A stretch of 62,955 nt of DNA from contig WRBR01000002.1 of NCBI GenBank assembly GCA_009784425.1, positions 1-62,955 on the forward strand, read 5' to 3'. The DNA is from Coriobacteriia bacterium. Its GTDB lineage: Bacteria; Actinomycetota; Coriobacteriia; Coriobacteriales; UBA8131. Position numbers and translations under genes: made by a program. Of this stretch, positions 8,362 through 62,955 are shown piece after piece (position 1 is the first letter of the stretch; each line of letters opens with the position of its first letter). The notes beneath the pieces are model-generated. The model did no database searches, was not told the DNA's origin, and saw only the letters and a program-made list of their open reading frames with translations.

Positions 8362-8451
8362 TGAGTTGGAACAGGAGGGACGGGGTTGGTGTACCACTTT
8401 TTGCCTCGGCAAAAAGTGGTACACCAACCCCGTCCCTCCTGTTCCAACTCA
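8362..8451. repeat. Family-B REPIN-like palindrome (GGGACGG-loop doublet)
   Basis: 44-bp perfect arms with a TC loop; includes the rsmG stop codon; nearly identical to the copy inside dnaX. Confidence 0.95.
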
Positions 8452-9144
8452 GGCGAGGGGGCGTTTGGTTGCCATTCCGGGTCTGCGTGGTAGGGTGATT
8501 GAGGGTTGGCCTGTTTTTTCGTACGCCAGGACAAGTCGATGGTTCTCGTTGCCTTCAAACAACAGTGTGTAGGCTCTTGAGCTGACAAGCCGCATGCTCA
8601 GCTTGCTGGCGGCAACCGCAGCTCGTTCAAGTTCTGCGTCTTCTGGTTTTCCCTTCAGGGATATGAAGTGCCCGCCAACCTGTAGAAGGGGCGCAGCAAG
8701 CTCCAGAAGCGCCGGCAAGCTTGCAACCGCGCGCGCGGTAATTACTGCAAAGGCTTCAGGCTGCTCCAGGGCAAGCTCCTCTGAGCGTGCCGCGCTCACC
8801 TTGATTATGCTCAGTAGGTCGTTGTCCTCAACAAAGCCTTGCAAAAACTGTGCCTTCTTCTTATTGGACTCCAAGAGGGTTGTGTGGCGCCCTGAAACAA
8901 GCGCCAGCGGTATGCCCGGGAACCCCGCACCGCTTCCCAGGTCCGCCATCTGCCCAGACGGAGCCCCCGTTACCTCGGGTAGTACTGCCAACGAGTCTTC
9001 AATATGAAAAACCCTACCAGCGGGCACATCGGTGATGCTGGTAAGGTTCTTTTTGTGGTTGTGTTGTAGCACCGCTTGCAGGTGCTCAAGTAACAAAGGC
9101 TGCTTCTGACAAAAATCCTCGCTGCAAAGCGTTTTGTCGCACAC
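8449..9144 (-). CDS. rsmG: 16S rRNA m7G527 methyltransferase RsmG/GidB
   Basis: NLTSIT, HIEDSL, DLGSGAGFPGIPL, ARAVA, PRRPG; canonical position before parA. Confidence 0.95.
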   Translation of the reverse strand: MCDKTLCSEDFCQKQPLLLEHLQAVLQHNHKKNLTSITDVPAGRVFHIEDSLAVLPEVTGAPSGQMADLGSGAGFPGIPLALVSGRHTTLLESNKKKAQFLQGFVEDNDLLSIIKVSAARSEELALEQPEAFAVITARAVASLPALLELAAPLLQVGGHFISLKGKPEDAELERAAVAASKLSMRLVSSRAYTLLFEGNENHRLVLAYEKTGQPSITLPRRPGMATKRPLA

Positions 9145-9153
9145 CGCTGTTTC

Positions 9154-9846
9154 CTATCGCTGCTGGCTCAGCTTAACAACAACACAGCGGTTGGGCTCTT
9201 CTCCGTCTGACTCAGTAAGCACCCGGCGCTCGTTTCTCAGGATAATGTGTATGATGCGACGCTCGTAAGGAGTCATGGGTCTCAGGCGCACGTCGCAGCG
9301 GCCTCGAATACAGCGTGCTGCAGATGCCTTGGCCATAGACTCAAGCTTCTGCCTGCGACGATGGCGATATCCCTCAATGTCAACAATAATGGGGTATCTA
9401 AAGCCAATCTTCTTGTTAACGATTGACGCTACCAAAAATTGCAGCGCGTCTAGTGTTTTGCCGTAGCGCCCTATGAGTACTGCCAAGTCGCCTCCCACAA
9501 CATCCAGGATAAGCTCGCCGTCTTCTCCCTCATACTCGTCGATGGCAGCATCTTCTGCATCAAAGTAGCTCAACAGGCTTCGCAGCGTCTCTAGGGCAGT
9601 GTCAGCAACTTGGTCAAGCTCCTCGTCGCTTAGTTCGGGGCTTTCACCGTACGATCTAGACTCCACTACGCCCTGAATATCTTCTGATTCATCCTCGCTG
9701 TTTAGTTCTTCTTCAATCTCGTCATCATCAGACTCGTCGTACGCTTCATCTAGGTCTTCTGAATCGTATGCCTCTTCAACTGACTGCTCATCAGTTTCTT
9801 CGGTAGTTGTTTCAGCAACTTCGGCACTTTCTTCGTCAAAGCTCAT
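9154..9846 (-). CDS. jag: RNA-binding protein Jag/KhpB (KH + R3H) with acidic N-terminus
   Basis: LIGRYGKTLDALQ KH motif, PMTPYERRIIH R3H motif; AAGGA RBS before ATG 9846. Confidence 0.93.
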   Translation of the reverse strand: MSFDEESAEVAETTTEETDEQSVEEAYDSEDLDEAYDESDDDEIEEELNSEDESEDIQGVVESRSYGESPELSDEELDQVADTALETLRSLLSYFDAEDAAIDEYEGEDGELILDVVGGDLAVLIGRYGKTLDALQFLVASIVNKKIGFRYPIIVDIEGYRHRRRQKLESMAKASAARCIRGRCDVRLRPMTPYERRIIHIILRNERRVLTESDGEEPNRCVVVKLSQQR

Positions 9847-9926
9847 TGTTTTCCTTTCTCTCAAGCACCTGCACGTGAGTGTGCTGTCTTTGATTCTTTC
9901 TATAGCAAGCTTTTTTTACAGCTGTT

Positions 9927-10694
9927 CTAGCGTTTTTTCTTGGGACGAGCCTTTCTTTCAACTCTGTCAACTTCTACCTTCACCGGCTTTACTGCTTCCA
10001 TTTCTTTTTCTTCTTTTTCGTCCTTTTTCTGCATCCTTATGCGTGAGAGTTGTTGCTGGGCAACTCCGATGTAAGAGCTTACGTCCCAATACAGAAGCAC
10101 GCCTGCGGGCACGCCCCAGCCAAACCACAGCATAACCACAGACATAATCCCCATCATAACTTTAGTGTTCTTATCTGCGTTTTTCTGAAGCAGCAGCGGT
10201 ATCATCAACGAGGCGGCAAAGAGCAGCAGCATTATGATGTAGGGGATGACTGCTATGACACCCTGCTCCGCAAACACCTGGCCGGTGGTTACGGTTAGGT
10301 CGGGGACAATGCCGTAGAAACTCACGCCTTCAGTGGTGCCAATGCGCTCTTCCAAGGTTCGGAGCACCTGAAACAGGGCAATGAATATGGGCATCTGCAA
10401 AAGCATAGGCAGGCAGCCGGCCAGGGGATTGAACTTTGCCTCTTTGTAGAGCTTCATTTGCTCCTGCTGCTGGCGCTGAGGATCATCAGGATACTTTTCC
10501 TTGATCTCCTTCATCTTAGGCTGCAGTTTTTGCATTTGATAGGTTGACTTGAATTGCTTTCTGGTTATTGGATAAATAAGCATCCTAAAGATGATGGTGA
10601 CAAAAATAATTGCCAGACCCCAGTCACCGCACCAGTCATAAAACCAGTGAATCACCCAGAAGATTCCGTCTAAAAAGATATCCCACGCTCCCAA
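9927..10694 (-). CDS. yidC: Membrane protein insertase YidC/Oxa1
   Basis: WGLAII, MQKLQP, NPLAGCLPMLLQMPIF, PAGVLLYW. Confidence 0.95.
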   Translation of the reverse strand: MGAWDIFLDGIFWVIHWFYDWCGDWGLAIIFVTIIFRMLIYPITRKQFKSTYQMQKLQPKMKEIKEKYPDDPQRQQQEQMKLYKEAKFNPLAGCLPMLLQMPIFIALFQVLRTLEERIGTTEGVSFYGIVPDLTVTTGQVFAEQGVIAVIPYIIMLLLFAASLMIPLLLQKNADKNTKVMMGIMSVVMLWFGWGVPAGVLLYWDVSSYIGVAQQQLSRIRMQKKDEKEEKEMEAVKPVKVEVDRVERKARPKKKR

Positions 10695-10761
10695 GATGTC
10701 TCCTGTTCTCTAAGGCAACACGCTCATCCTGAAGCCCTTATCAATTATTACTATCTTACTA

Positions 10762-11929: not shown

Positions 11930-12490
11930 AATTTCTCTCTCCACAGCAGTGCCTGTGGAAAATGTGAAAAAACAAGTAAGTACGCGCACTTTCCTGTGGA
12001 AAACTTTATAAAGAAACATATGTTTGCTGTTGACAAGCACCGGCTTTCTATGCAAAGTAGTACCTCTGTTAGTTCAAAACTGCGTTAAAAAGTGGCTATT
12101 TGCCAGCAGTTTAACAGAAAGGCACCTTGAAAAGAGAATCTGTTTTTCTTTGCTCGTTCGTGTACGGGAATCTTTACATTTCCTTTACCTAATCGCAGGA
12201 TAAAGCTATCACGAAACAACATAATGTTTATTTTTTCACAGTTTCAGTAGGTTTTTCCCCAGGCTGGTCTTAGGTATCTTTCAAGATTTCACACCCTTTT
12301 CCCCACCTGTGAAATATTGTGGTAGACAATTTTGAAATTTCCTTGTAATGTGGTGTATCCTACATTTCACTCTGTTTCACAGATGGTAGGCACGGGCTTT
12401 TTACCGTAGTTTAAAAGATGGTTTTTCTCGTGCTTTTTCACAAGAAAAGTCCAAATTTTGGGGAAAAGCCTGTGAATTTCAGAAAAACCA
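11930..12490. other. oriC, upstream DnaA-box cluster (non-canonical boxes)
   Basis: AT-rich non-coding region with TTTTCCACA (11954, 11995 on minus), TTTTTCACA (12232, 12434), TTTTCCCCA (12253, 12297, 12459 on minus). Confidence 0.7.
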
Positions 12491-12564
12491 GGGATTTCTG
12501 TTTTGAAATATCCAGAAATCTTGAAACCGGCTGGTAGCCTCAATGTTGAAACCCGGTAATCATC

Positions 12565-13380
12565 ATGAACGATGGCAACATAGCAATAGAAGACAAAGCC
12601 CGGATAGCGGTCTACGACAGCCTTCTTTCTGCGCCTCGCGTAGTTGATATTCCTCCTCAGGATATACAGCAGTTTATCGAGGACATAGCGGTAGCCGCCT
12701 ACGAACTTTCGCGCCAGCAGGGAGGGCGATTGCCCTATACCGTTATCAGAGAGATAACGGAGAATTTTATCCACGCTGGTTTTTCTGAATGCACGGTGTC
12801 TATTCTCGATGAGGGCAACACCCTGCGTTTTGCTGACCAGGGACCAGGAATCACCAAGAAGGATCTGGTGCTAGAGCCCGGCGTGTCTTCGGCAGTCCGA
12901 TGGATGAAGGACTATATTAGAGGAGTGGGCTCAGGTTTTCCCATTGTGAGGGAATACCTTTCTGCCTCTCAGGGTTACTTGAGTATAGAAGACAACGCAG
13001 AAGAGGGTGTGGTGGTAACCATTTCCTTGGTTCCCCGCGTTGCTTCTCCACCATCAGCTGCCGGGTTTGGATATGAGATATCCTCTGTCCCCTCATTTGC
13101 TCAAGATGCTGAACTGGGTTCAGCAGGCATCAAAGAGCCTCTTGCACACCAAGGTTTAGAAAGAAACCTCAGCATGCGGGAAGAAAAAACTTTACTATTG
13201 CTCAAAGAACACGGTTTGCTTGGACCAATCGATCTGGCAGATCTTCTCGGAGTCAGCGCTCCTACCGCAACCAGGGTACTCCAAAAATTGGAAGAATCCC
13301 ACATGGTGGAACGCACTCAACTTAGGAAGCGGATTCTCTCAAATGCCGGAATGGCATACATTAAGGAGCTTCTTGTATAG
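12565..13380 (+). CDS. GHKL/HATPase_c domain + C-terminal winged-helix protein
   Basis: REITENFIHA (N-box), ADQGPGI (G1), RGVGSGFP (G2); C-terminal LGPIDLADLLGVSAPTATRVLQKLEE HTH; ends 38 bp before dnaA. Confidence 0.8.
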   Translation: MNDGNIAIEDKARIAVYDSLLSAPRVVDIPPQDIQQFIEDIAVAAYELSRQQGGRLPYTVIREITENFIHAGFSECTVSILDEGNTLRFADQGPGITKKDLVLEPGVSSAVRWMKDYIRGVGSGFPIVREYLSASQGYLSIEDNAEEGVVVTISLVPRVASPPSAAGFGYEISSVPSFAQDAELGSAGIKEPLAHQGLERNLSMREEKTLLLLKEHGLLGPIDLADLLGVSAPTATRVLQKLEESHMVERTQLRKRILSNAGMAYIKELLV

Positions 13381-13418
13381 GTAACGATGTGCGGCGCGGG
13401 AGGATGTATTAATTAAAT

Positions 13419-14987
13419 ATGAGAGAAGTAAGTGACGTTTGGGGTCAGGCACATACCCTTTTGCTTAATACTGCTGAAACCACAGACTTGGCAAAAGTCT
13501 GGCTCAGCTATCTTGTGCCGGTTTCTTACGATGAAAACCAGATAGTTTTTGCAGTAAAGTTTCTCCAAGCAAAAAATTGGATAGAGGAGCGGTATCTCCC
13601 TTATATTATGGAAGCAATAGCTGCAGTTTTAGGCAGCCCCCGAGAAGTAGTGTTAATTATTGACGAGACTTTGGGTCAATATGCAACAACGGCAACAACC
13701 GGTTCCATCAGCATCCCAGCTGGCTCTCCGGTTGACTCTAACCCAGCTGGCCCTGCTGTTCACGCCGGCGCCTTTACAAGCCAGGCTACAAGCCCGGTCA
13801 CCACGCCTGTTGGTGTGCCCGGCGCAACCAGCTCTTTTCAAGCTGTGGGTACAACAACCCATGAGAACCCTGGTCGCAGCAGCGGCCTCAGCTCAATTTT
13901 TGCCCAAGATGACCCCGCTCCGGTTGCTCCGGTTGCCGAGCCTCAGTCTCGCTTAGTCTTTAAGAACTACGTGGTGGGTAACAGCAACTCAATGGCTTAT
14001 AGTACTTCGCTCAGGGTGGCAGAAAACCCGGGTCTCTATTTAAATCCCCTCTTTATCCACGGAAAAAGCGGCCTGGGAAAAACCCATCTCTTGCGGTCTA
14101 TAGAAAACTACATCAAGTCTTACCTGTTTGATAAACGGGTGGTGTACTCTCCAATCAATGACTTTATCAGCGATTACGTAAACGCTATAGCCGAAGACCG
14201 CAATCTCACTAGTTTCAAGCTTAAATATCACACCTGTGATGTTCTTCTTATAGATGATGTTCAAGTACTTGAAGGAAAAGAAGGCACCACAGATGCACTC
14301 TTTGAAATATTTAATATGTTTTATGAGAAGAAAAAGCAGATTGTTCTCAGTGCTGACAGGTCGCCTATTGAAATCAATATTGATGAGCGGTTTACCAGCC
14401 GTTTTGCCTGGGGTGCCACTGCAGAGATTCATCCTCCAAACTATGAAATGAAAACAGCAATTCTGAAGAATTACAAGCGTTACTGTTGCAGCTTCTTACA
14501 AATCCCTGAAGTGAGCTTTGAAGACGAGGCCATCCAAAAGATTGTTGAACTCTCTGGCTCTAACATCAGAGAGCTAGAAGGCGCCGTTAACAGTCTTATA
14601 GCCTTTGCTTCTTCTAACCCTGAAAGAGACATACTCACTCCTATTGCTTGTGGTGATGTGGAGCGCATCCTTGGTGACTCTTTCTTCCATCAATATACTC
14701 GCCGTGTTGATTTTGATATGGTTATGCGGGCTGTGGAGTCATATTTTAAAGTGACTCGTGCAGAACTTCTCAGTGAGAAGCGTTCAAAGAATATCACGCA
14801 TCCACGCCAGGTAGCCATGTATCTCATCAGACAGTTTACCGATATGTCCTACCCAGAAATCGGTGATGGTTTTCATAAAGACCATACATCAGTTATTTAC
14901 GCAGATAAAAATATCCAGGCAAAAATGGTTAAGGAGGCCAGTATTAAAAAAGAAGTTGAAAAGATTGCCGAGATACTGACTTCTTAG
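13419..14987 (+). CDS. dnaA: Chromosomal replication initiator DnaA
   Basis: NPLFIHGKSGLGKTHLL, LLIDDVQ, NIRELEGA, PRQVAMYL, KDHTSVIYA; long low-complexity domain II. Confidence 0.98.
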   Translation: MREVSDVWGQAHTLLLNTAETTDLAKVWLSYLVPVSYDENQIVFAVKFLQAKNWIEERYLPYIMEAIAAVLGSPREVVLIIDETLGQYATTATTGSISIPAGSPVDSNPAGPAVHAGAFTSQATSPVTTPVGVPGATSSFQAVGTTTHENPGRSSGLSSIFAQDDPAPVAPVAEPQSRLVFKNYVVGNSNSMAYSTSLRVAENPGLYLNPLFIHGKSGLGKTHLLRSIENYIKSYLFDKRVVYSPINDFISDYVNAIAEDRNLTSFKLKYHTCDVLLIDDVQVLEGKEGTTDALFEIFNMFYEKKKQIVLSADRSPIEINIDERFTSRFAWGATAEIHPPNYEMKTAILKNYKRYCCSFLQIPEVSFEDEAIQKIVELSGSNIRELEGAVNSLIAFASSNPERDILTPIACGDVERILGDSFFHQYTRRVDFDMVMRAVESYFKVTRAELLSEKRSKNITHPRQVAMYLIRQFTDMSYPEIGDGFHKDHTSVIYADKNIQAKMVKEASIKKEVEKIAEILTS

Positions 14988-15233
14988 TTTTGTCCTATCA
15001 TTTACCCTGGTAAAAACCTCTTAAAAGAAAGGGAAATATCTGATAAAAATATCCTGTTTTTTGTTGAAAACTTCTCCCCAATTTTTCCCTTGTTGAAAAA
15101 TATAGAAGTTGACAACAAAAACTACACAGATAAAATTGCCTATCAAGCAGGAAAAAGAGGAGTTTTTTAAGACTTTTAACACCCCTTATTATTACTGGTT
15201 ATATATTAAAAAAATTAGAAATAGGAGAGTCAG
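14988..15233. other. oriC, dnaA-dnaN intergenic unwinding region
   Basis: Degenerate boxes (TGTTGAAAA at 15062 and 15091, TTCTCCCCA at 15072), then CTTTTAACA-CCCC-TTATTATTAC (box, GC tract, DnaA-trio-like repeats) and an AT-rich tract. Confidence 0.75.
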
Positions 15234-16349
15234 ATGAAATTCACGATAGCAAGAGAGCAACTCGCTCATAGTATACGGATGGTTGCTAAGGCTATGAGTT
15301 CTCATAGCACTATTCCGGTGCTCAGTGGTATACACATCAGTGCTGTGGCAGATGGAATCATATTTGAAACAACTGACCTCGATATTTCTATAAGGCACAT
15401 TGAAGAAGCACTCATAGAAGAGCAAGGTGCCCTGGTTGTGCCGGGTAAGATATTCAACGACATCATCAACAGTCTTCCTGAAGAGGCAGTTTTTCTAGAG
15501 AAAACCGGAGAAAAACTGAAAATCACTTGCAGTGGAACCACCTTTGAGATTGCAACCCTCAACGCCTTGGACTTTCCACAGTTCCCTCAGATTATCCCGT
15601 CTCGGTCTTTAGAGGTTCCTTCTGTTCAACTATCAAACATGGTTAAAAAGGTGGGAAAAGCTGTTTCTAAAGACGTATCAAGAGCGGTATTAACCGGTAT
15701 CTACTTTGAGGTAAAAGAAGGACAACTCCGCTTAGCCTCAACGGACTCCTACCGGCTGGCCATCACCAAAGAAACATTAACTCCCGCCCCCGATGCACCA
15801 CCGATTGAGGAGTTCACTACCATCATTCCAGGCAGCGTACTTGACGAGGTTTGCAGGCTGGCTCCAAACACAGGAGATATCAAAATAGGGGAGAGTGAAA
15901 ACCAGATTATCTTCCAATTTGGATCCACTACCTTTATCTCTCGTAAGATAGAAGGTAATTACCCCAACTTTGAGCAGATAGTACCTGCAGAAAAAAGCGT
16001 GTCGGTGGTAGTAGAAAAAGAGCTGCTTTTAACTGCGGTAAAACGTGTTTCTATTGTGGCAAAAAATGCCAGTCCTATAAGGATATCCCTCCACGCAGAC
16101 ACACAGCAAATAGAGGTTACCGCCCAAACTCCTGATGTAGGAGAAGCCAAAGAAAATATTCCGGCGCAAATTGACGGAGACGAGATAGAGATTGGTTTTA
16201 ACCATCAATACATCTTGGATGGACTAAGTGTGGCCGGCGGAGAAGAACTGCTGTTTGAGGCGCAGACTTCTATCAAGCCCGGAATCTTCAAATCCATTGG
16301 AAATGACGATTATTTCTATTTAACCATGCCGGTTCGCTTAGACCGATAA
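15234..16349 (+). CDS. dnaN: DNA polymerase III beta sliding clamp
   Basis: PVLSGI, STDSYRLA, EGNYPNF, C-terminal LTMPVR; follows dnaA. Confidence 0.97.
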   Translation: MKFTIAREQLAHSIRMVAKAMSSHSTIPVLSGIHISAVADGIIFETTDLDISIRHIEEALIEEQGALVVPGKIFNDIINSLPEEAVFLEKTGEKLKITCSGTTFEIATLNALDFPQFPQIIPSRSLEVPSVQLSNMVKKVGKAVSKDVSRAVLTGIYFEVKEGQLRLASTDSYRLAITKETLTPAPDAPPIEEFTTIIPGSVLDEVCRLAPNTGDIKIGESENQIIFQFGSTTFISRKIEGNYPNFEQIVPAEKSVSVVVEKELLLTAVKRVSIVAKNASPIRISLHADTQQIEVTAQTPDVGEAKENIPAQIDGDEIEIGFNHQYILDGLSVAGGEELLFEAQTSIKPGIFKSIGNDDYFYLTMPVRLDR

Positions 16350-16379
16350 AAGGTTAAAAAGGTTAGTAACGGCACGATT

Positions 16380-17441
16380 GTGGAAATTACCAAAATCGAG
16401 CTTAAGAATTTTAGAAACCATAAGTATCTCTTGATAGATAATATTGGCTCGATTCTTATCATTGCCGGCAGTAATGCAGCAGGAAAAACAAATACTATAG
16501 AAGCGCTGCAGCTACTCTCCATGCATGAAACCTTCAAGAGGGCAAAAATTGAGGAGATGTTATGCACCCTTAGGGCCGCAGAAGAACCGAGCCTTATATC
16601 GATTGATATCTACGACCATAACACCCTTAATACCAAGCAGATAGTGTTGCAAGACAACACCCGCACCTATTTCTATAATAAAAAAGAGAGACCAGCCAAA
16701 GAGCTCATCGACCTTATTCCGGCCGTATTATTTACCCCTGACGATCTACAGATAATTAAAGGCCCGCCCGAGCAGCGCCGCGACATGCTGGACAGCCTGG
16801 GTAAAAGACTCTCAAAATCCTTTGCCCACATCAGAGATGAATATCACCGGGCGCTCAGGCACAAAAACAGCCTACTTAAACAAGAATATATCGACTTAGA
16901 TTTACTGGAGTCCTGGAATACCAACCTGGCTAAGCTTGGATCCTCTCTCAATAAGCACCGTCGTGGATTATCCGAGCAGCTCCTCGAGGTTGCCACCGCC
17001 GCATACAGCAAGATATCCGGGGGAGAAGAGCTGAGGGGTACGTATCTCTCCAACTTTGAGGACCTTGCCTTGGAGCTTTCACAAAACCGCGAGGCAGAGG
17101 TCCAGGCTGGGCGCTCCCTCATTGGGCCCCATAAAGATGACCTGAGTTTTACCATCAATGGCTCTGATACTCGACGGTTTGCCTCGCAAGGTCAGCAACG
17201 CTCGGTGGCGCTGGCACTAAAAATCGCCGAGATAGAGATACTCCGCAGGGTCTGCGGCAGAAACCCCTTGTTGCTCCTCGATGACGTGATGAGCGAGCTG
17301 GACACAGCCCGTCGCACGCACTTCATCGACCTCATTGAAAGCTCAACCCAGGCGGTGCTGACCACCACCAACCTAGGATACTTTGACGAGGAGTTTCTTG
17401 AGAGAGCCACAATAGCCCAACTGCAAGACAAGGTCAGGTGA
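16380..17441 (+). CDS. recF: DNA replication/repair protein RecF
   Basis: NFRN, GSNAAGKTN, GPHKDDL, ASQGQQRS, LLLDDVMSELD. Confidence 0.96.
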   Translation: MEITKIELKNFRNHKYLLIDNIGSILIIAGSNAAGKTNTIEALQLLSMHETFKRAKIEEMLCTLRAAEEPSLISIDIYDHNTLNTKQIVLQDNTRTYFYNKKERPAKELIDLIPAVLFTPDDLQIIKGPPEQRRDMLDSLGKRLSKSFAHIRDEYHRALRHKNSLLKQEYIDLDLLESWNTNLAKLGSSLNKHRRGLSEQLLEVATAAYSKISGGEELRGTYLSNFEDLALELSQNREAEVQAGRSLIGPHKDDLSFTINGSDTRRFASQGQQRSVALALKIAEIEILRRVCGRNPLLLLDDVMSELDTARRTHFIDLIESSTQAVLTTTNLGYFDEEFLERATIAQLQDKVR

Positions 17442-17782
17442 GTAGCATCAAAAAAAACAAAAGAAAAGAACACGAGCTCTCTTTAGGTGATGCAGTTGCC
17501 GAGTATCTCAACACCCTACCGCTTGCCAAACGAGGCTTAGTGGTCCACTGGGAGAAGGTAGCAGCACCCCATTTTCTTGAACATACCGACAACGTGGTAT
17601 ACGACTCCAAATCAAAAAACAACACCATATTAGTCTACGTTGACAGCGCAGCCTACGCCAACGAACTCACTATGGACAAAGAGCTCTACCGCATGTTGAT
17701 GCAAAAAGAAACCAAGAAAGAGATTGCTGACATCAGGTTTCTCGTGTCACGTAAAACCGCCCTCAGAAAACGTTCAACTTAA
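17438..17782 (+). CDS. DUF721/DciA-like helicase loader
   Basis: WEKVA...ILVYVDSAAYANEL pattern; canonical position after recF. Confidence 0.7.
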   Translation: MSSIKKNKRKEHELSLGDAVAEYLNTLPLAKRGLVVHWEKVAAPHFLEHTDNVVYDSKSKNNTILVYVDSAAYANELTMDKELYRMLMQKETKKEIADIRFLVSRKTALRKRST

Positions 17783-18998: not shown

Positions 18999-19215
18999 TC
19001 AGTTTATCCAATGCCCAGAGCCAGCCCCATTATTATGACACATTGAGAGGATATAACAGGGACGGTTCTTGAAGGGCCTCAAAACCCTATCAATGCCGGC
19101 CTGAGTAGCCACACAGATGGCTATCAGTGGAGTAGCAGGAGGCTGCTTGGCAGAGAGCAGGGGATGGTGCCCCAACGATGCTGAAGACAGAGGTATCGTA
19201 TGTTAAAATATCGAT

Positions 19216-49346: not shown

Positions 49347-49363
49347 AGGGACGTAGTGTGAGT

Positions 49364-49528: not shown

Positions 49529-49539
49529 TCGGCCAGCTT

Positions 49540-51776: not shown

Positions 51777-51804
51777 AACAACAGTATACTCCAGAGAGCC
51801 GGGT

Positions 51805-51990: not shown

Positions 51991-52083
51991 TGGCGGAGAG
52001 ACAGGGATTTGAACCCTGGTGCCCGGGGTTGCCGGACAAACGGTTTTCGAGACCGCCGCTTTCAGCCGCTCAGCCATCTCTCC
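51991..52083 (-). tRNA. tRNA-Ser (CGA)
   Basis: GGAGAGATGGCTGAG...GCGGT-CTCGAAA-ACCGT, long variable arm, GGTTCAAATCC, CCA end. Confidence 0.96.
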
Positions 52084-52187
52084 GCAGTTAGATAGCTAGG
52101 ATACCAGAAAACGCTCCGGAGCTCGATACGTCCCGGCCGGCAGAGGAGCCGGGGTGAGTAAGAACAAACGCCCCTGTTTCATAGCCT

Positions 52188-52259
52188 CTGGGTCCTTCGA
52201 CTACGCTCCGCTCCGCTCAGGATGACAGGGTGTGATGCTACGCTCCGCTCAGGATGACA
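52188..52259 (-). repeat. Family-A arm plus a second partial arm
   Basis: CTGGGTCCTTCGACTACGCTCCGCTCCGCTCAGGATGACAG followed by CTACGCTCCGCTCAGGATGACA. Confidence 0.85.
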
Positions 52260-52338
52260 TGAGCCAGAAGAACCGCCCCGCTGCTTCATCTGGTATGATT
52301 ACTTTACGCTTTTCAGGCACTTGAGCATGAGGTGAGAC

Positions 52339-54603
52339 ATGCCAGAAAGTTCTGAGACAAAAGGAACCTTTGCGCGCCTGGCAGGTCTTGGCGCTTTTGC
52401 TCACCTGACGGGGCTTGGAAACATCTCTTTGCGCCTGGGGCAAAACAGAACCATCAGGGGAGTCACCGAAGGTCTCATCAATCTGGTGCCGCTTGTGCTC
52501 ATAGGCACAATTTGTTTGGCCTTAACCAATCTTCCTATACCGGCAATACACGTTTTCCTTAACAGCATCACCGGCAACCACTGGACGCTCATCTCGGACA
52601 TGATCGTCTTTTCCACAGAGCACATCATTGGCTTGGCGGCACTGCTGTCGGTTTCATATGTCCTTGCGGGGCAGAGCAACTCCATTCAAAAACGCGAAAT
52701 CAGCAGCTTTATCCCCATGTTCACGGCGTTTTCTTGTTACGTGGTCTTGTTGGTTTGGGATCCGGTGAGCTATGCCCTGGTTCCTGAAGGCCAACCTCCG
52801 GAGGTGCTGTTCACCAACGCGGGGCAAAGAGGGGTCTTCTTTGCCCTGTTTGTAGCGGTGGTGGCAACCAAGCTTTTTGCCCTGTTTACCAGGCTCTGGC
52901 AAAAGCTACCTTGGTTCAGGCGGCGCATTGTTGGCAGTTACATCCTGCTGCGCAACGCTCTGCACACTGCTGCCCCCATACTGCTTACCCTGACCTGCTT
53001 CATCGTGCTGAGAATGCTGCTGGATTGGCTGTTCAGCACAACAGAGGTCCAGGCTTATCTGGGCAACCTCATTGCCTCCTTGGTCAACGATGGTCGCCTC
53101 CCCTTTGTCGTCATCACCATTTTGATTATGCAGATACTCTGGTTTTTTGGAGCTCATGGTTCTTACACCATCCAGACCCTTATGCCACATGTTGACACTG
53201 CCGCCACCGGCAATACTGTGCAGGCTCTGGCGGCGGGTGCCCCTGGTCCTACCACCGTATTCACCAACTGGGACTTTTACAACATCTTCATCGAGATGGG
53301 AGGCGCCGGCACCACAATGGCGTTGCTCATAGCACTCTTGCTCTTTGGCTCCAAAGGAAGAGGAAAGCGTCTGGGGCGTATATCGATATTCCCCGTGACC
53401 TTTAACATCAACGAGACTCTGCTCTTTGGCATTCCCATAGTGTTCAACCCCCTGATGCTCATACCCTTCATTCTTGCCCCCGTGACCGTAGCTTGCGTGT
53501 CATTTGGGGCAATTAGCCTGGGGGTTGTGCCGCCCATAATCAACTCGGTGGAGTGGACTACACCCATCCTCTTTTCTGGGTATCTGGCAACAGACTCCTT
53601 TGCCGGGCCCTTGCTTCAGGCGCTTTGCATTGGGCTCGCATTTTTGATCTACGCACCCTTTGTGCTTGCCGTGAGAATTGCCACCGACCGCCACCAGCTC
53701 GAACTCTTTGAGCGCTTCAAGAAAGAGGCACAAAACGCCGCCAACAACGAAACGGTCTCAGTATCCGGCAGGCACGACGACATCGGCACCATGGCAAACC
53801 AGTTTATCACCGAAATCAGCATGTCTTTTAGCAGCAACAACATCCCCCTCTGCTTGATGTACCAGCCCAAAACCGATAACCAAGGGAGGGCCGCCGGGGC
53901 AGAGGCGCTGCTGCGCTGGATGCATCCCATGTTTGGCCCCATACCGCCGGATATCCTCGTTGAGCTAGCCGACGAGGCAGACTTTTCTGCACCTCTCGGC
54001 AGATGGATTGCCACAGAGGCGCTCGAAGAGTTTGCGCGCTGGCAACAAAGTGGGCTTGAGCAGCTGGTTCTTTCCATCAACCTCAACCCTCGCCATGTTT
54101 TCATTGACGAGGAGTTTCCGGAGTTCTTACAAAAAGAGATGGAACGCCTTGGTGTTGAGCCCGGCCTCATTGACCTGGAGATCACCGAGCACATGGCGGT
54201 GGGCGCCAGCAAGGAGATGCTACTGCTGTTTCAGCAGCTACGCAATCTGGGCGTCAGGCTTTCCATTGATGACATGGGGATGGGGTATAGCTCGCTTACC
54301 TATATCAGTGATTTTGGCGCGAGTGTCATCAAGATTGATATCTCGCTCATCGACCAGGTAGCCACCGATGTCAAGCAGCAAGAAATCGTGCGCTCAATAA
54401 TCGACTTAGCTCGGCAGATAAACCTAACGGTCATTGTAGAAGGCGTTGAAACACAGGAACAGGTCAACGTGCTTGCTGGCCTTGGGTGCAATTATTTCCA
54501 GGGATTCTTCTTCTCAAAACCGCTCAGCCCTCAAGACTTCCTCGCTTATGTTGATGCCCACGGCACCACATTGCTCTTGCATGAAGGAACCCAGTCATCC
54601 TGA
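52339..54603 (+). CDS. PTS EIIC (lactose/cellobiose type) - EAL phosphodiesterase fusion
   Basis: LWFFGAHG, MGGAG, FNINETLLFGIPIVFNP, WTTP; then YQPK, EALLRW, INL, LEITE, IDDMGMGYSS, VEGVET, QGFFFSKP. Confidence 0.9.
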   Translation: MPESSETKGTFARLAGLGAFAHLTGLGNISLRLGQNRTIRGVTEGLINLVPLVLIGTICLALTNLPIPAIHVFLNSITGNHWTLISDMIVFSTEHIIGLAALLSVSYVLAGQSNSIQKREISSFIPMFTAFSCYVVLLVWDPVSYALVPEGQPPEVLFTNAGQRGVFFALFVAVVATKLFALFTRLWQKLPWFRRRIVGSYILLRNALHTAAPILLTLTCFIVLRMLLDWLFSTTEVQAYLGNLIASLVNDGRLPFVVITILIMQILWFFGAHGSYTIQTLMPHVDTAATGNTVQALAAGAPGPTTVFTNWDFYNIFIEMGGAGTTMALLIALLLFGSKGRGKRLGRISIFPVTFNINETLLFGIPIVFNPLMLIPFILAPVTVACVSFGAISLGVVPPIINSVEWTTPILFSGYLATDSFAGPLLQALCIGLAFLIYAPFVLAVRIATDRHQLELFERFKKEAQNAANNETVSVSGRHDDIGTMANQFITEISMSFSSNNIPLCLMYQPKTDNQGRAAGAEALLRWMHPMFGPIPPDILVELADEADFSAPLGRWIATEALEEFARWQQSGLEQLVLSINLNPRHVFIDEEFPEFLQKEMERLGVEPGLIDLEITEHMAVGASKEMLLLFQQLRNLGVRLSIDDMGMGYSSLTYISDFGASVIKIDISLIDQVATDVKQQEIVRSIIDLARQINLTVIVEGVETQEQVNVLAGLGCNYFQGFFFSKPLSPQDFLAYVDAHGTTLLLHEGTQSS

Positions 54604-54694
54604 GCGAAGCGCGCAGCGCGTAGCCGAAGAACCCAAGCAGTGAGTCGCAGCCTAGGTCCTTCGACTACGCGCTGCGCGCTTCGCTCAGGATGAC
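54594..54694. repeat. Family-A palindromic repeat, full doublet
   Basis: GTCATCCTGAGCGAAGCGCGCAGCGCGTAG / CTACGCGCTGCGCGCTTCGCTCAGGATGAC; supplies the TGA stop of the EAL gene; between convergent genes. Confidence 0.93.
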
Positions 54695-54699
54695 AGAAG

Positions 54700-56964
54700 T
54701 TAATCCAGCTGCTCTTCGATATCCAGTTCCATCAATGCAACGTTGTCGCGCAGCATCTTGGCGGTTTCTTCTGAGATTTTGCCGTCTTCGTACGCCTTCA
54801 AAATGGCCTTGCGCTCAAAGTCAAGAGCCCGAGCCTCTATGGCGATGGTCAGATACTGATCTCTGCGGATGTTTGCCGCCATGGTTCCGCTGCGCTCCCA
54901 GCGGCTTTCCAGGCGAGCGATGCGCTGGTTCATTTCATTCTTGATCAGGGCAACCGTATAGGCGGGAAACTCATCAGAGGGCTCAAGCTCGCCAAGCTTT
55001 TCCACTACATAGCGATAGTTGGCTAACTGCAAGGTATGAAGGTCAAACATGAGCACCATTCTGCCCTGCGGGCCCCCTGCCTTCTCTGCCTTTTGAAGGG
55101 TTCGGCGCGCTTTCCATTGATGGGTGAGCTGATTCATCATCGCCCGCACCTCCCATCTGAGCGTATGCTGATAGTCGGCGCGCGCCAGCTGTCGGCTCAA
55201 AACACTGATGTTGTAATAAGCCGTAAGACCGCCCACCTTTTCCAGGTCGGTGAGGCGCTGGGTGTTTTCTAACTGCAGCTCAATGACATACTTGCGCACC
55301 TGAGTTTCATTGGGCAGCCTCAAGCTGTTGTTGATCTTAAGCGTCTCGATACGCTGGTAATACTGGCGCACAACCCCACTTACAGCAGACCGCTCATTTG
55401 CCTCAGCGGTTTCGGTGAGCTCTGAGATGACTTTTCGGTAGATATCAAGGGTGGCGTTGAGCTCAGAGGTTTTTTGGCGGGCCTGCTTTCTCTTGGGTGC
55501 AATGAGAGGCACGAGGATATTAGCCAAAAGCAGGGATAACAAGATAACGCCACTGGCCAAGAAGATGAGCAGGTCGCGCTCCGGAAACGGCTCTGCGCCA
55601 CCAATGGTCATGGGAACCGAAAGTATAATTGCCAAGGTGATGGCACCCTTGACACCAGAAAGCGAAAGCACCAAGGAGTCAACTAGATGGAGCTTCCAGT
55701 ATTGCTTGTCTAAACGGGCTTGTTTCTTACTGGTTTTGCGAGCTTCTTTGCGAGCGAGCCTGCGTTCGCTCCGCGCCTTTTTGAGCTCTAGTCTCTCAAA
55801 TGCCAGGTGCTTCTCGAGTGCAGCCTCATGCTCAGCAATAGTCATCTCACCAAAATTTGGAGAAAGGAGCGCCTTGTCCTCATCATCCTCTTCATCAAAG
55901 CCCTCTCCACTGCCTGTTTTAAAGGCAGATTCTGCGTTGGTCTCGCGCAGATTGACATTGCGGCGCATGAAAAACAACCAGAAAAAGCGTAACACCAAGA
56001 TGAACGCCAGGATAAAGACCACAAAGAGAAGCAGGTAATTGGTGTTGGCCGCCGTGCCGGTCCAAACGCGCTCCACCACATAGGGCAGCTGGGTGCCCAG
56101 GATTAAGAACACCAGGCCATTGAGGGTAAAGTCAATCACCGACCACGCGCTGGTAGACACCACATTGAGGCGCGCTGAAGAAGGCGCAATGGCGCGGGGC
56201 TCAAAGCTGTGCGCTATGCCCGCAGCAACTACGGCGATGATGCCGCTTACGCCAACTGCCTCGGCCAACAGGTAAACGAGAAAGGGCGTAATGATTTCAA
56301 AGAGCACATGAAAAGAAACGCTTTCCATGCCGCGTGAGCGCAAGAAGCGAATCAAACCGTAGCGAACAAGCATCACCACAACGCCCAGCACCATGCCGCC
56401 GAGGAACTTTATGAGAAAGACCCCTTCGGCCTCCCAAACAGAAAAGGTGCCGGTAATAACCGCGGCAATAGCAAAATTAAAGGAAACGATAGACGAGGCG
56501 TCATTAAGGAGCGCTTCTCCCTGGAGCAGTTTGTTTTGCTCACTTGAGATCTTTGCGTTTTTTCTGAGCGAGGCTACTGAGACAGCATCGGTTGGCGCCA
56601 GCGCGGCCGCAAGGGCAAAAGCCGCGGCAAGCGGTATGGACGGAGCAAAGAGGTTAACAGCAAAGCCGAGGAGCAGCACCGTGCAAAACACCAGGCCAAG
56701 CGCCAAGAGCAACACGGGGTATTTGAGCCGCCAGAGCGCCTGCTTGTTCATTCTGCGAGCGTCGGCAAAAAGCAGGGGGGCAATGAAGACCACCATAAAG
56801 AGCTCCGGGTTGAGATGCATCTCAAAGCTCAGCGGCAAGAGTGTGAGCACGATACCCGTGGCAATTTGAACCAAGGGCGTAGGAAGGCGAGGAAAGCGAG
56901 CCCCGACAAAACTGGATGCAAGCACCGCCACCAGTAAAATCAGTATGAACTCAAAATCATGCAT
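54700..56964 (-). CDS. CPA1-family Na+(K+)/H+ antiporter
   Basis: FIAPLLF, LAPTDAVSV, GEALLNDAS, SGIIAVV, GVKGAITLA; long cytoplasmic C-terminus. Confidence 0.92.
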   Translation of the reverse strand: MHDFEFILILLVAVLASSFVGARFPRLPTPLVQIATGIVLTLLPLSFEMHLNPELFMVVFIAPLLFADARRMNKQALWRLKYPVLLLALGLVFCTVLLLGFAVNLFAPSIPLAAAFALAAALAPTDAVSVASLRKNAKISSEQNKLLQGEALLNDASSIVSFNFAIAAVITGTFSVWEAEGVFLIKFLGGMVLGVVVMLVRYGLIRFLRSRGMESVSFHVLFEIITPFLVYLLAEAVGVSGIIAVVAAGIAHSFEPRAIAPSSARLNVVSTSAWSVIDFTLNGLVFLILGTQLPYVVERVWTGTAANTNYLLLFVVFILAFILVLRFFWLFFMRRNVNLRETNAESAFKTGSGEGFDEEDDEDKALLSPNFGEMTIAEHEAALEKHLAFERLELKKARSERRLARKEARKTSKKQARLDKQYWKLHLVDSLVLSLSGVKGAITLAIILSVPMTIGGAEPFPERDLLIFLASGVILLSLLLANILVPLIAPKRKQARQKTSELNATLDIYRKVISELTETAEANERSAVSGVVRQYYQRIETLKINNSLRLPNETQVRKYVIELQLENTQRLTDLEKVGGLTAYYNISVLSRQLARADYQHTLRWEVRAMMNQLTHQWKARRTLQKAEKAGGPQGRMVLMFDLHTLQLANYRYVVEKLGELEPSDEFPAYTVALIKNEMNQRIARLESRWERSGTMAANIRRDQYLTIAIEARALDFERKAILKAYEDGKISEETAKMLRDNVALMELDIEEQLD

Positions 56965-61022: not shown

Positions 61023-61098
61023 TGGTGGAGATGATGGGATTCGAACCCACGACCTATAGCTTGCAAAGCTATTGCTCTCCCAGCTGAGCTACATCCCC
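61023..61098 (-). tRNA. tRNA-Ala (TGC)
   Basis: GGGGATGTAGCTCAG...ATAGC-TTTGCAA-GCTAT...CCA; G3:U70 identity pair. Confidence 0.97.
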
Positions 61099-61176
61099 AC
61101 GCCGGCAAACTCACACAGTGTATCACAAGTGACAGAGGATTTAAAAAAGAGGGCACAGAGAGAACACTCTTAACTC

Positions 61177-62493
61177 TCAACGATTGCCTTTGTTTTTGCG
61201 AACGATGAGCTCGGCGCCTTCAACGTCATCGCCCATGGACAGATCGTACACTTTGTAGTTGTTTTTTCCGTGGTCTTTGGCGTGATACATGGCTATGTCG
61301 GCATACTTGATGAGTTCGTCGTAGTCGGTTTGCATGCTGGGGAAAAGCGATATTCCAATGCTCATGCCAAGACCATAGGTGTTTATGTACTCCAGAAGAC
61401 TGGGCTCCTTGCCAAAGGAGTCAAGGAGCTGCTGGGCATAGACAGAAGCCTCCGCGGTGCTTGATATACCGGGTACCAGCTGCAGAAACTCATCTCCGCC
61501 AATGCGGGCTGTGAGAGCCTCCATGCCATCAACGTGGTCATAATCGCTTTGCCCGGCAAAGCTTTTGAGGAACGAGGCTATGCTGCGCAAGAGCACATCA
61601 CCAACATCATGCCCGGCAGAGTCATTGACGGCCTTAAAGTTGTCTAAGTCGATAAAGAAAACCGCAAAGGTGCGCTGGTGCTCCCTGAGAAAATCGATTT
61701 CCCTTGCTAAAAAGCTAAAAAGATTGTTTCTGTTGGGCAAGCCCGAGACAGAATCAAAGTTTGCCAGCTCAAAGAGATGCCTTCGTATGTTGCTGTTGTG
61801 GCGGCTGATCATAAAGAGGACAACCATCATCATCACCGCTATAAAGCTTGTAGTGATAACCAAAACCGTTGTATAAAAAGCTGAGGTCTCTCGGTGGCGC
61901 ACGATAAAAGTGTCCTCAATATCGGTGGCAACGATGCCTACCTGATTACCCCTGCCGTCAAAAAGCGGCACGGCGCCTGTGTTAAAGGAGCCCCACTCGT
62001 CAACCACATTACTCACATCGGCAGAAGCGCGGCCTGCAAAGGCCTCTTCATGAACAGGGGAGAGCTCATAGGGGGTAAAGTTTTCACGAGTCTCCTCTGC
62101 CTCAAAATCGGTGTCAAAAACAAAATAGAACACACCGTCGATTTCTTTGAGCGCATAAATGTATGCGCCGCCTATCTCATAATTGAGCACTCTGAGCTCG
62201 TTTACAACCTTGACCCAGGCGTCCCAGTTTTCATTAACATCCTCTTGAGAATTGATTTTCTTGAACAAATCAATGTTACCGGAGATGATTTCCATGCCGG
62301 CTGTGCTGCTGGCGATGAGCTCTTTGCGCACGCTCTGAATGAGCACCTCTTCTGCCTCGGCATTATTCCTCAGCGTGAGAGAAAGCGTGATTAAGAGCGT
62401 GGCAACTAATAGGAATGCAACAGCCCCCATGCCAACGAGAAGAATTTTTGGAGCAACAACATCATTGATGCTTTTGCTTGAAGCAGCCCTCAT
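61177..62493 (-). CDS. Membrane-bound diguanylate cyclase (sensor domain + GGDEF)
   Basis: Two TM helices, DSVSGLPNR, IDLDNFKAVND..GH..GD, RIGGDEF, ADIAMYHAK..GKN. Confidence 0.93.
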   Translation of the reverse strand: MRAASSKSINDVVAPKILLVGMGAVAFLLVATLLITLSLTLRNNAEAEEVLIQSVRKELIASSTAGMEIISGNIDLFKKINSQEDVNENWDAWVKVVNELRVLNYEIGGAYIYALKEIDGVFYFVFDTDFEAEETRENFTPYELSPVHEEAFAGRASADVSNVVDEWGSFNTGAVPLFDGRGNQVGIVATDIEDTFIVRHRETSAFYTTVLVITTSFIAVMMMVVLFMISRHNSNIRRHLFELANFDSVSGLPNRNNLFSFLAREIDFLREHQRTFAVFFIDLDNFKAVNDSAGHDVGDVLLRSIASFLKSFAGQSDYDHVDGMEALTARIGGDEFLQLVPGISSTAEASVYAQQLLDSFGKEPSLLEYINTYGLGMSIGISLFPSMQTDYDELIKYADIAMYHAKDHGKNNYKVYDLSMGDDVEGAELIVRKNKGNR

Positions 62494-62574
62494 CTACACC
62501 TCGTCAACTCCAACTACATCACCCAATACCTGGTTTGAGCGAGGAAATGCTGCCTTGCCACCGATTCTGTATTC

Positions 62575-62619
62575 AATAAACGCCCTGGCGGCTACTCGGC
62601 TCACGCCAGGGCGTTTATT
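62575..62619 (-). terminator. Hairpin terminator after tRNA-Ile
   Basis: AATAAACGCCCTGGCG...CGCCAGGGCGTTTATT. Confidence 0.7.
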
Positions 62620-62629
62620 TCAAAAGAAC

Positions 62630-62706
62630 TGGTGGGCCCAACTGGATTCGAACCAGTGACCTCACGGTTATCAGCCGTGCGCTCTAGCCAACTGAGCTAT
62701 GGGCCC
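62630..62706 (-). tRNA. tRNA-Ile (GAT)
   Basis: GGGCCCATAGCTCAG...CACGG-CTGATAA-CCGTG...GGTTCGAATCC...CCA. Confidence 0.97.
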
Positions 62707-62860
62707 AAAAAGCGCCCGATAACTGTATCCCAGTGGGGCATCCAGGTCAAGAAAATATATCAGAAAATCTCGCATTTGGCAAATTGCGAATAGTTCAAGC
62801 AGTTTACTTTACAGTTAAAAACAGCAAATGCGAGCAAAAATATGGCAATTGCGATTCACC

Positions 62861-62955
62861 GGGGACGGGGAAAGTGACTCACTGGGTGGAACAGGGGGAC
62901 GGGGTTAGTGTTCCAATTTGACCTTGGTCAAATTGGAACACTAACCCCGTCCCCC
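62861..62955. repeat. Family-C arm joined to a family-B palindrome, truncated by the window end
   Basis: GGGGACGGGGAAAGTGACTCACT then GTGGAACAGGGGGACGGGGTTAGTGTTCCAATTTGACC-TT-GGTCAAATTGGAACACTAACCCCGTCCCCC. Confidence 0.9.

Follow-up and report, generated by a model that had tools for sequence, protein, structure and literature searches.

We have analyzed a family of short hairpin repeats dispersed through contig WRBR01000002.1 (62,955 nucleotides, hereafter the window) of the draft genome GCA_009784425.1 of a Coriobacteriia bacterium. The window is contig C2 of this genome (G000), an assembly of 2,002,177 bp in 146 contigs that has 52.8% G+C and is rated 86% complete. The repeats combine a constant G-rich core with stems that change from one class to the next, and they are very probably the non-autonomous hairpin ends of a transposon-like unit encoding a class-2 Y1 HUH tyrosine transposase, of the type known as RAYT (transposases associated with repetitive extragenic palindromes, or REPs) or TIRYT. 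The enzyme probably belongs to TnpAY1 subclass 2.1 (RAYT group 1). The strongest evidence is a series of copies leading from the gene-bearing unit through deletion derivatives to minimal doublets, in which the hairpins appear as the ends of a Y1 element that are copied without its gene.

The scheme that we propose starts from the gene-bearing copy on contig C48, with two inverted small-hairpin ends whose loops would carry GGGGACGGGG. Its interior would be lost stepwise, giving derivatives of about 0.43 kb, then end-to-end doublets of 65-83 bp, and then single units and arrays of truncated units. The core would be what the enzyme reads or cuts, a role comparable to that of GTAG in REPs or of GGGGWSAS in the TIRtrons discussed below, and the stems would need only to pair. 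Movement would involve a single-stranded DNA intermediate that the tyrosine enzyme cuts and joins again, with no target-site duplication. The TGGWACA subfamily would be moved by a paralogue missing from the assembly or be cross-mobilised by the C48 enzyme. New copies would build up within older ones, at their centres, and in protein loops of variable length, and the complementarity of their arms would probably be kept through hairpin-templated template switching. Both current activity and recognition of the loop motif are what we infer from the sequences.

The core motif and its stems

The motif GGGACGG occurs 24 times in the window against 4.80 expected, and GGGGACGG 19 times against 1.56, a number that none of 100 shuffled sequences reaches. 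Genome-wide there are 995 copies of GGGACGG, 519 of GGGGACGG and 838 of GGGACGGGG, at a density of about one core per 2 kb, and the most frequent 8-mer of G000 is GGGACGGG. These counts bear out the initial annotation of the window, which had described a dispersed family with a constant core and changing stems. The grammar of stem and core was scored by regular expressions and stem scoring. A perfect stem of at least 5 bp frames 412 of the 949 scorable cores in G000 and one of at least 7 bp frames 326; the corresponding figures are 351 (7%) and 38 (0.8%) at 5000 random positions, and 135 and 104 when the 3' flanks are permuted among the units.

Each unit has a 12-17 nt loop containing GGGGACGGGG between stems of 5-9 bp. 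When classed by their five loop-adjacent bases, the stems fall into 35 classes in all; those sharing the core include TGGAACA, TGGTACA, GGACA, TGACAA, TGAGTCA(CT) and GAGACAG. The 404 TGGNACA..TGTNCCA units have A/T at the variable pair in 161 cases and T/A in 130, with mismatched A/A in 58, A/C in 26 and T/C in 15. This distribution is consistent with a pairing constraint, but much of the signal is clonal; one subfamily provides 106 half-units.

In a position matrix of 921 cores the conserved block sits between the stems. No GT[AG]G appears at the hairpin foot, either in this matrix or in the tabulated stems and loops. Read on the opposite strand the core is CCGTCCC, which contains CGTC. This tetranucleotide recalls the CGTC-tagged REPs of the Rickettsia palindromic element (RPE) or Neisseria dRS3 kind, which one survey reports without a dedicated transposase (Di Nocera et al. 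2013, PMC3733652), and a kinship with them would also suit the CCA ends, the predominance of head-to-head dimers and the in-frame genic copies seen here. We consider that kinship very improbable. The published format, as given in the same survey, is a terminal CGTC, an 8-9 bp stem, a 4-5 nt loop, a second stem and a CCA tail (PMC3733652), whereas here the stems have 5-9 bp, CGTC is internal to the loop of 12-17 nt that they enclose, and a Y1 gene is flanked by the units.

Arrays of units (for example C41:12909-13082 of G000) have at least four G3-G5 tracts on one strand, with GGGACGGGG every 19-24 nt, and could form G-quadruplexes. Among the literature matches listed for GGGACGGGG, G-quadruplex studies are the main kind.

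Architecture of the repeats

The inverted units that had been read as head-to-head doublets are real, but each such doublet is a single near-perfect palindrome of 71-83 bp, with a small hairpin in each arm (for example TGGWACA ... TGTWCCA). By pattern, G000 contains 141 simple TGGWACA elements of 71-83 bp, with modes at 76, 78 and 80. They represent 74 distinct sequences, and 41 copies are identical 76-mers at different sites. With the central 4 nt left aside, the arms of 129 of the 141 pair at every position. The 20-mer GGGACGGGGTTRGTGTWCCA, which marks TGGWACA half-units, occurs 338 times in G000 and not at all in 40 relatives, five of which are congeners. Element lengths modulo 3 have residue counts of 50, 58 and 33 genome-wide, that is, no bias toward multiples of three, so any selection for frame is confined to the intragenic subset. 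In single-stranded form the whole doublet folds up as a 37-38 bp hairpin (-49 to -50 kcal/mol, z about -15), and the hairpin of one unit is weak (7-bp stem, 15-nt loop, -4.1 kcal/mol, z -2.3).

Cores no more than 100 nt apart form 412 clusters, which occupy about 1.7% of G000 and have their cores in the order (+)n(-)m in 411 cases and -+- in one. A palindromic centre is present in 202 clusters, with core numbers on the two sides equal in 100 and unequal in 102; the other 210 are one-sided, and 170 of these are single cores. Neighbours in the same orientation are mostly spaced by 24 nt (120 cases), 19 nt (52) or 32 nt (25). Such arrays consist of truncated units piled up on the outer side of one complete element. 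The simple idea that new copies nest by inserting into older intact ones was considered and rejected for most clusters, given that the outer layers are truncated and have periods of 24, 19 or 32 nt. The "short-form" palindromes of the outer layers never occur alone, and the smallest plus/minus spacing is 26. A core lies within 150 nt of 88 of the 292 contig ends, which indicates that the repeats break the assembly.

The Y1 transposase gene and its derivatives

A gene for an HUH Y1 (RAYT) enzyme had been expected outside the window, and one is present at C48:14443-15219, flanked by inverted core-bearing units. A Pfam Y1_Tnp search of G000 and 12 relatives gave a single match in G000 (C48:14479-14814); the open reading frame (ORF) containing it encodes 258 amino acids with the motifs NHVHLLL and RYIHQNP. 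The protein scores 49 bits against Pfam Y1_Tnp (cut-off 23), 46 bits against NCBIfam REP_Tyr_transpos, which is below the equivalog cut-off of 80, and 16.6 bits against NCBIfam IS200 (NF033573, cut-off 55). All of 32 aligned homologues share the residues H60, H62, Y120, N124 and P125. An AlphaFold model based on these homologues has a mean predicted local distance difference test score of 84.5 and predicts a helical C-terminal domain at residues 195-255. Its best PDB fold match is 4er8_A, the E. coli RAYT on a REP hairpin (E 8.6e-7, target TM 0.72), with the IS200, ISDra2 and IS608 TnpA proteins ranking lower; a phmmer search with the Y1 protein against PDB sequences gave no meaningful match. 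More than 2500 proteins fall into the family at E of 1e-10 or below, with source names "transposase" or "REP element-mobilizing transposase RayT". The C48 protein is of class 2, and its length and predicted C-terminal domain point to subclass 2.1.

The unit preceding the gene is GTGACAAG-GGGACGGGGCG-TTTGTCA, with the same core, and downstream of the gene a reverse-complement unit begins and is truncated where the contig stops. Three sequences on C31 and one on C49 repeat residues 151-258, the C-terminal half of the gene, with 88-96% identity; a further match on C31 is weaker and partial, and two more, of 25 residues each, lie at contig ends. In three of the deleted copies the junction was read; they have a near-identical junction and the same two ends in different flanks. 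Such deletion derivatives are about 0.43 kb long, and five minimal doublets of the TGACAA class, on C19, C28, C64, C74 and C142, consist of both ends alone. Parts of C31 (1-8000) and C49 (6000-15109) are rich in Y1 deletion derivatives and probably represent a mobile-element-rich or recently rearranged part of the genome. One rve integrase match was found in G000 (C49 8161-8484), and neither TnpB (PF07282) nor DDE_Tnp_1 was found in this 86%-complete assembly.

The placement of a Y1 gene between inverted units, a best fold match to the E. coli RAYT and inverted doublets that form long hairpins would also be expected of a classical REP/REPIN population like those of Escherichia and Pseudomonas, maintained by a group 2 or 3 RAYT that is domesticated and present in one copy. 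Such a population is improbable here: the hairpin foot lacks GT[AG]G and the motif lies between the stems, the REP_Tyr_transpos score is 46 bits against a cut-off of 80, the protein has 258 amino acids with a C-terminal helical domain, the gene unit itself has left several deleted copies, and 26 of 160 clusters lie within open frames.

Paralogues and cores in related genomes

Counted against its reversed control, the 9-mer core occurs 838 versus 33 times in G000, 139 versus 13 in G005, 139 versus 53 in G001 and 170 versus 20 in G036, a member of another family of the order. In most of the remaining genomes it is not enriched over this control. The interchangeable-stem grammar proposed from the window holds around paralogous genes. 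The exact 7-mer flanks nine of 14 inspected Y1 loci (in G000, three in G005, and one each in G002, G007, G022, G036 and the metagenome contig L192); three others have variant cores, namely GGGACAGG (G036), GGACAGG (G031) and GGGGACG, and two have none. The stems differ by locus, with TGACAA, GGGACA, GGATACA, TGTCA, ACACA and GTGCCAAAA among others. Since the core is kept around paralogous genes while the stems differ, the core is most likely the part that is read or cut by the enzyme.

Doublets of its own, with GGGACA stems, are present in G005 and match the flanks of its paralogue L090; at a second G005 locus, L094, the Y1 gene is flanked by inverted repeat copies. On L192 (1514 bp) a 63%-identical paralogue has complete TGGGACA doublets and stacked truncated units on both sides. 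The TGGWACA type of G000 differs from the TGGGACA type by a paired stem change, and in both G005 and L192 it is a paralogue of the candidate TGGWACA-mover kind that is flanked by TGGGACA-stem doublets.

G036 represents an independent expansion of the same core. On its contig C1 (for example 111040-111180 and 452510-452790) the units have the form TGTCC(TCTCT)-GGGGACGGGGG-...-GGACA at a spacing of about 36 nt; this genome is 99% complete, with 170 cores and two Y1 genes.

At residues ~96-103 of the C48 protein, the G000, G005b and G001 orthologues have ALIA(N/D)R(Y/F) and the other paralogues LFQ(D/N/G)R(F/Y). In the E. coli RAYT, according to Quentin et al. (2018, PMC6006769), this region makes contact with the GTAG guide. 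The change to ALIA(N/D)R(Y/F) might track the differing 3' part of the loop (CGT) of the ends in question.

Flanking sequences and arm symmetry

Flanks were examined at 39 clean elements, with no other core within 30 nt, and at 5000 control intervals. A flanking direct repeat is absent in 34 of the 39 elements and in 69% of the controls; there is thus no target-site duplication. Complementarity between the flanks behaves differently, in that zero complementary bases are found in only 6 of the 39 elements against 74% of controls. Per position outward the complementarity is 0.85, 0.67, 0.51, 0.41 and 0.36, then about 0.25, so the palindrome extends 1-7 nt into the unique flanks.

A second kind of element, the TGACTCA class of 166-190 bp, allows filled and unfilled copies to be compared within the genome. 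Its unfilled copies, on C2, C29, C45 and C50, have outer arms that are perfectly paired over 34-41 nt and a centre that is not palindromic. This centre, about 90 nt long, is similar from copy to copy, and no Rfam family matches it at gathering score. A match of the 186-bp element to mir-H4 (44 bits, gathering score 90) was taken as a generic long-hairpin match and rejected, and the whole Rfam scan gave only four tRNAs at gathering scores. Two copies of this class adjoin tRNA genes, tRNA-Ser(cga) (51991-52083) in the window and a tRNA-like 3' end on C50 (~5137-5456). In four copies (C8, C52, C75 and C11) a TGGWACA element lies inside the centre. The adjacent flanks are symmetrical at 31 of 33 positions on C8, both of the "right-arm" type, and at 22 of 24 on C52, both of the "left-arm" type; on C75 and C11 they are asymmetrical. 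The symmetrical flanks of C8 and C52 can be read as the result of arm-to-arm copying, for which template switching at quasipalindromes is a known process.

A step akin to rolling-hairpin replication, which is otherwise known from parvovirus-type HUH replication, could be added to the proposed scheme, though we think it unlikely. After an HUH cut or a break at the hairpin tip, the 3' end would fold back and copy its own arm. Such re-making of each copy from one arm would account for the perfect palindromes in 129 of 141 elements despite 74 variants, for the 1-7 nt of flank complementarity together with the absence of target-site duplication, for new copies at the centres of old ones, and for flanks turned into an inverted arm copy in the two filled TGACTCA-class copies. 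If it were true, a single enzyme reading GGGGACGG only could drive many stem classes.

Copies inside genes

The intragenic test covered 160 multi-core clusters at least 300 nt from a contig end and required a frame open for at least 60 codons on both sides. Only 26 of the 160 lie in such open frames, whereas random intervals do so in 55% of cases; coding sequence is thus depleted of the elements but not free of them. Pfam was run on 22 of the 26, leaving out C12:3-890, C24, C41:4977-5627 and C130. In 17 of these 22 there are Pfam domains on either side of the element, or a domain is split; the hosts are UvrD/PcrA, ABC-F, CysS, PolA, an MFS transporter, SelB, PDZ-radical-SAM, GlyQS, PriA, amylase-GH77, a MiaB-like enzyme, RsgA, FumA, DnaX, CopA, aroE-aroK and HPPK-methylase. 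In some of the last-named, two modules may be joined through the element. The remaining five (TatD, aldolase II, Mfd, a radical-SAM protein and an M20 peptidase) have domains downstream only.

The peptide of the commonest frame is (V/E)(E/V)Q(G/R)DGV(G/S)VP...GT(P/L)TPS(L/P)CS. Different peptides are encoded by the two other frames and by the TGACTCA class; all three frames are used, and each 24-nt unit of an array adds eight residues. A recurrent peptide (QRDGVGV...TPTPSLCS) could point to a selected protein module, long hairpins 3' of genes could terminate transcription, and one rve integrase gene is present on C49. An origin of the family as miniature inverted-repeat elements of a DDE insertion sequence (IS), or as host-made terminators, RNA genes or peptide modules spread by recombination, is nevertheless extremely improbable: target-site duplications and DDE_Tnp_1 were not found, the only Rfam matches at gathering scores are tRNAs, the genic copies use all three frames while most copies are intergenic, and the same ends flank the Y1 gene.

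Because the congeners are only ~66-79% identical in DNA, junctions were compared as protein, in ten genes against their congener orthologues. An intact element was found in none of these orthologues. RsgA of G000 has about 31 extra residues relative to four of four relatives, and PriA, TatD and FumA have G000-specific insertions that are absent from every alignable congener orthologue. Every compared site is a segment of variable length among the relatives, for which reason the exact inserted bases could not be fixed. In the copA orthologue of G004 (L101, ~nt 2068-2200) the site of the G000 element is occupied by a tandem triplication of 33 nt encoding TLTEGRPE(V/A). The copA loop past DKTGT is, to judge from these alignments, a hotspot for different kinds of insertion.

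Age and activity of the repeats

Several observations weigh against the interpretation of the repeats as mobile ends of a Y1 element. The C48 gene, the sole Y1 gene of the assembly, is associated with the minor TGACAA class, which has 24 matches to its 12-nt loop motif, and the cognate gene of the TGGWACA class was not found, a tblastn search with the G005 paralogues returning only C48 and fragments. In the dominant fold of a doublet the motif is base-paired within the 37-38 bp stem, and since the doublet folds as one long hairpin the motif would be looped out only in single units or branched folds. Position 7 of the core is G and not A as in the GGGGWSAS of TIRtrons; the C-terminal Pfam helix-turn-helix (HTH) matches are weak (E 0.02-0.07); and YIHQNP is equally compatible with the consensus of subclass 2.6. 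As to age, the right end of a unit, its last 18 nt, survives in copA of G002 at the junction occupied in G000, where a degenerate unit is also found inside, and UvrD of G002 carries a similar peptide; some sites have thus been long occupied, and part of the population is inherited. Four public runs (region 37000-56900) contained no insertion polymorphism or empty-site contig, but their contigs stop at repeats and are uninformative on activity. Joints in these runs link different repeat copies, and one, from 51834 to 51961, fits the shorter members of the TGACTCA class.

It is possible, if on balance doubtful, that the TGGWACA copies are immobile relics of a lost paralogue, with their identity and symmetry kept by template switching and gene conversion. 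The absence of a cognate gene from the assembly would be explained in this way, as would the sites shared with G002 at copA and possibly UvrD, the lack of polymorphism in the four public runs (seen as contigs that break at repeats), and the perfectly complementary arms of 129 of 141 copies despite 74 variants. Relics are harder to reconcile with 41 identical copies at different sites, with 338 half-units against none in the 40 relatives including the five congeners, and with insertions in RsgA, TatD, FumA and PriA that are absent from all alignable congener orthologues. The missing gene also loses weight at 86% completeness with 88 of 292 contig ends near a core, as a repeat-flanked gene would assemble badly.

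Copies in the window

The examples singled out in the initial annotation all recur in our analysis. Those with TGGAACA..TGTTCCA are at 50312 and 62887, TGGTACA..TGTACCA at 40483, GGACA..TGTCC at 20198 and GAGACAG..CTGTCTC at 47123, and TGACTCACT..AGTGACTCA terminate the 186-bp element that spans 51805-51990 and has a degenerate counterpart at 49364-49535.

The first doublet (8362-8451) is an 80-bp TGGAACA/TGTACCA palindrome with a 5-nt palindromic extension, neighboured by rsmG (8449-9144, minus strand) and a parA-like gene (7346-8161, minus strand). A cluster of GGACA stems with the loop AAAGGGGACGGTTCATC, in the arrangement + - - -, occupies 20197-20298, between AbiEii-like and FRG-domain genes. 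The element at 38862-38962 comprises a 78-bp doublet (38869-38946), a 7-nt palindromic extension and an outer minus-strand core; it is in frame in dnaX (37713-39506, plus strand), past domain III, and encodes LEQRDGVGVPLFAEAKSGTPTPSLCSK. Of the same construction is the element at 40476-40577, an 80-bp TGGTACA doublet (40483-40562) with a 7-nt palindromic extension and an outer minus-strand core, which sits between recR and ychF.

Two degenerate units on the minus strand (44930-44990), with CCCCGCCCC replacing CCCCGTCCC, lie at the end of the ORF at 44345-44950. The single hairpin GAGACAG-GGGGACGGTTCTT-CTGTCTC (47123-47149, minus strand) is at the junction of two plus-strand ORFs. In the copper P-type ATPase gene (49626-51842, minus strand) a 78-bp TGGAACA doublet (50312-50389) directly follows DKTGT and is protein-coding in frame. 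Copies of the 166-190 bp TGACTCA class are found on either side of this doublet, a degenerate one with mutated cores at 49364-49535 and the 186-bp element at 51805-51990, with ends TGACTCACT-GGGGACGGGGAAAG-TGACTCA, adjoining the tRNA-Ser(cga) gene. At the end of the window (62861-62955) a TGACTCA-class half unit is followed by a TGGAACA doublet cut by the contig end.

Of the remnants that had been proposed, stemless sequences near 19057 (ACAGGGACGGTTC, 19050-19075, plus strand) and 25609 (a core at 25605-25625, minus strand) may be genuine and the units near 44949 are the degenerate pair just described, but the core match at 58654 is doubtful. Core matches at 887 and 58992 are stemless and look like chance occurrences in coding sequence; they were set aside.

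The segment of the window from 12000 to 24000 has 43-48% G+C against 53-57% elsewhere. It includes genes for an AbiEii-like nucleotidyltransferase toxin (19487-20107) and an FRG-domain protein (20427-21332), with the repeat cluster between them, and may be an island carrying defence or toxin-antitoxin genes. At 61023-62706 tRNA-Ala(tgc) and tRNA-Ile(gat) are 1.5 kb apart on the minus strand with an ORF of 438 amino acids (61177-62493) between them, a spacing unlike the usual rRNA-spacer arrangement. The host belongs to the Coriobacteriales; its YchF shares 59-64% identity with those of Atopobiaceae, Coriobacteriaceae and Eggerthellaceae records. Apart from the possible source run, G000 DNA is present in termite-gut metagenome runs of two studies.

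Comparison with known systems

TIRtrons, as described by Di Nocera et al. (2013, PMC3733652), are RAYT-like genes flanked by terminal inverted repeats, and their enzyme is named TIRYT. Many of their repeats share GGGGWSAS, and moderately abundant families are present as dimers and clusters; the same paper reports REPs inside genes, especially those of replication and repair (UvrABCD, RecBCD, PolI). Quentin et al. (2018, PMC6006769) place most TIRYTs in TnpAY1 subclass 2.1 (NHVH, Y---NP, a median of 238 amino acids and a C-terminal HTH) and state that REP-like sequences were not found for this subclass. According to Bertels et al. (2017, PMC5581495), abundant flanking 16-mers are found only in RAYT groups 2 and 3, with group 1 having about 12 occurrences and being the most IS-like group. 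We equate TIRtron/TIRYT here with TnpAY1 subclass 2.1 and RAYT group 1.

The present system resembles TIRtrons in its Y1 HUH enzyme with NHVH and Y---NP, in a size of about 240-260 amino acids (258 for the C48 protein) and in a C-terminal extension. The gene likewise lies inside inverted repeats that share a G-rich motif, the ends are dispersed as dimers and clusters, and the gene unit is duplicated in an IS-like manner. GGGGACGG fits GGGGWSAS at seven of eight positions, and GGGACAGG and GGACAGG, from two related loci, fit it. The system differs from TIRtrons in that each inverted repeat is itself a small hairpin whose stems enclose the motif; copies are far more numerous than the ~12 flanking 16-mers of group 1, and there are nested (+)n(-)m arrays and many in-frame genic copies, in a termite-gut host of the Actinomycetota (Coriobacteriia).

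With REP/REPIN-RAYT systems the repeats share inverted doublets that form long hairpins, a Y1 gene between repeats and the best fold match, 4er8; classical REPs, too, are not known to produce a target-site duplication. They differ from these systems in that the GTAG tag is absent, the elements are partly genic, the enzyme is longer and the gene unit itself is copied. The initial annotation had called the family REP/REPIN-like, and the association of hairpin repeats with a Y1 enzyme stands, but the closest class is TIRtron/TIRYT and not the GTAG REPIN, the former being the better fit. In its mode of working the system is like a REPtron or a TIRtron.

Like RPEs and intragenic REPs, the repeats are in-frame palindromes in the loops and linkers of housekeeping proteins, with replication and repair genes prominent (here PolA, UvrD, PriA, DnaX and Mfd). 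RPE-4 and RPE-6 are CGTC-tagged and have no known transposase, whereas here a candidate enzyme family is linked through its flanks. The IS200/IS605 elements (IS608, ISDra2) have in common with our system the Y1 HUH fold, subterminal hairpins and a single-strand mechanism without target-site duplication. They differ from it in having Y---Q where Y---NP is found here, and in ends of the same orientation where ours are inverted; moreover the IS200 model scores below cut-off and no tnpB partner was found.

No published description of this repeat family was found among the matches listed, and the supplements of PMC3733652, PMC6006769 and PMC5581495 may include Coriobacteriia or very similar ends. 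The enzyme family, repeat families derived from its inverted ends and in-frame palindromic repeats are already known. New are REP-like hairpin ends with a conserved motif between the stems, and paralogues that keep this motif and change the stems; so too are the copy number, the (+)n(-)m stacking, the arm symmetry without target-site duplication, the number of essential genes colonised and the host lineage.

The TIRYTs, or group-1 RAYTs, are the largest and least understood RAYT branch and have been published as lacking REP-like hairpins or abundant repeats. Through the graded series of gene-bearing unit, deletion derivative and minimal doublet, a member of group-1 type, as judged by motifs, length and end motif, is now tied to a dense population of hairpin repeats. 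The occurrence of the same core with different stems leads to a testable guess at the target of the enzyme, GGGGACGG, and supplies natural stem variants for testing it. The family is also another instance, independent of the first and from a different phylum, in which palindromic repeats have colonised the loops of essential proteins and, unlike the Rickettsia RPEs, it comes with a candidate enzyme.

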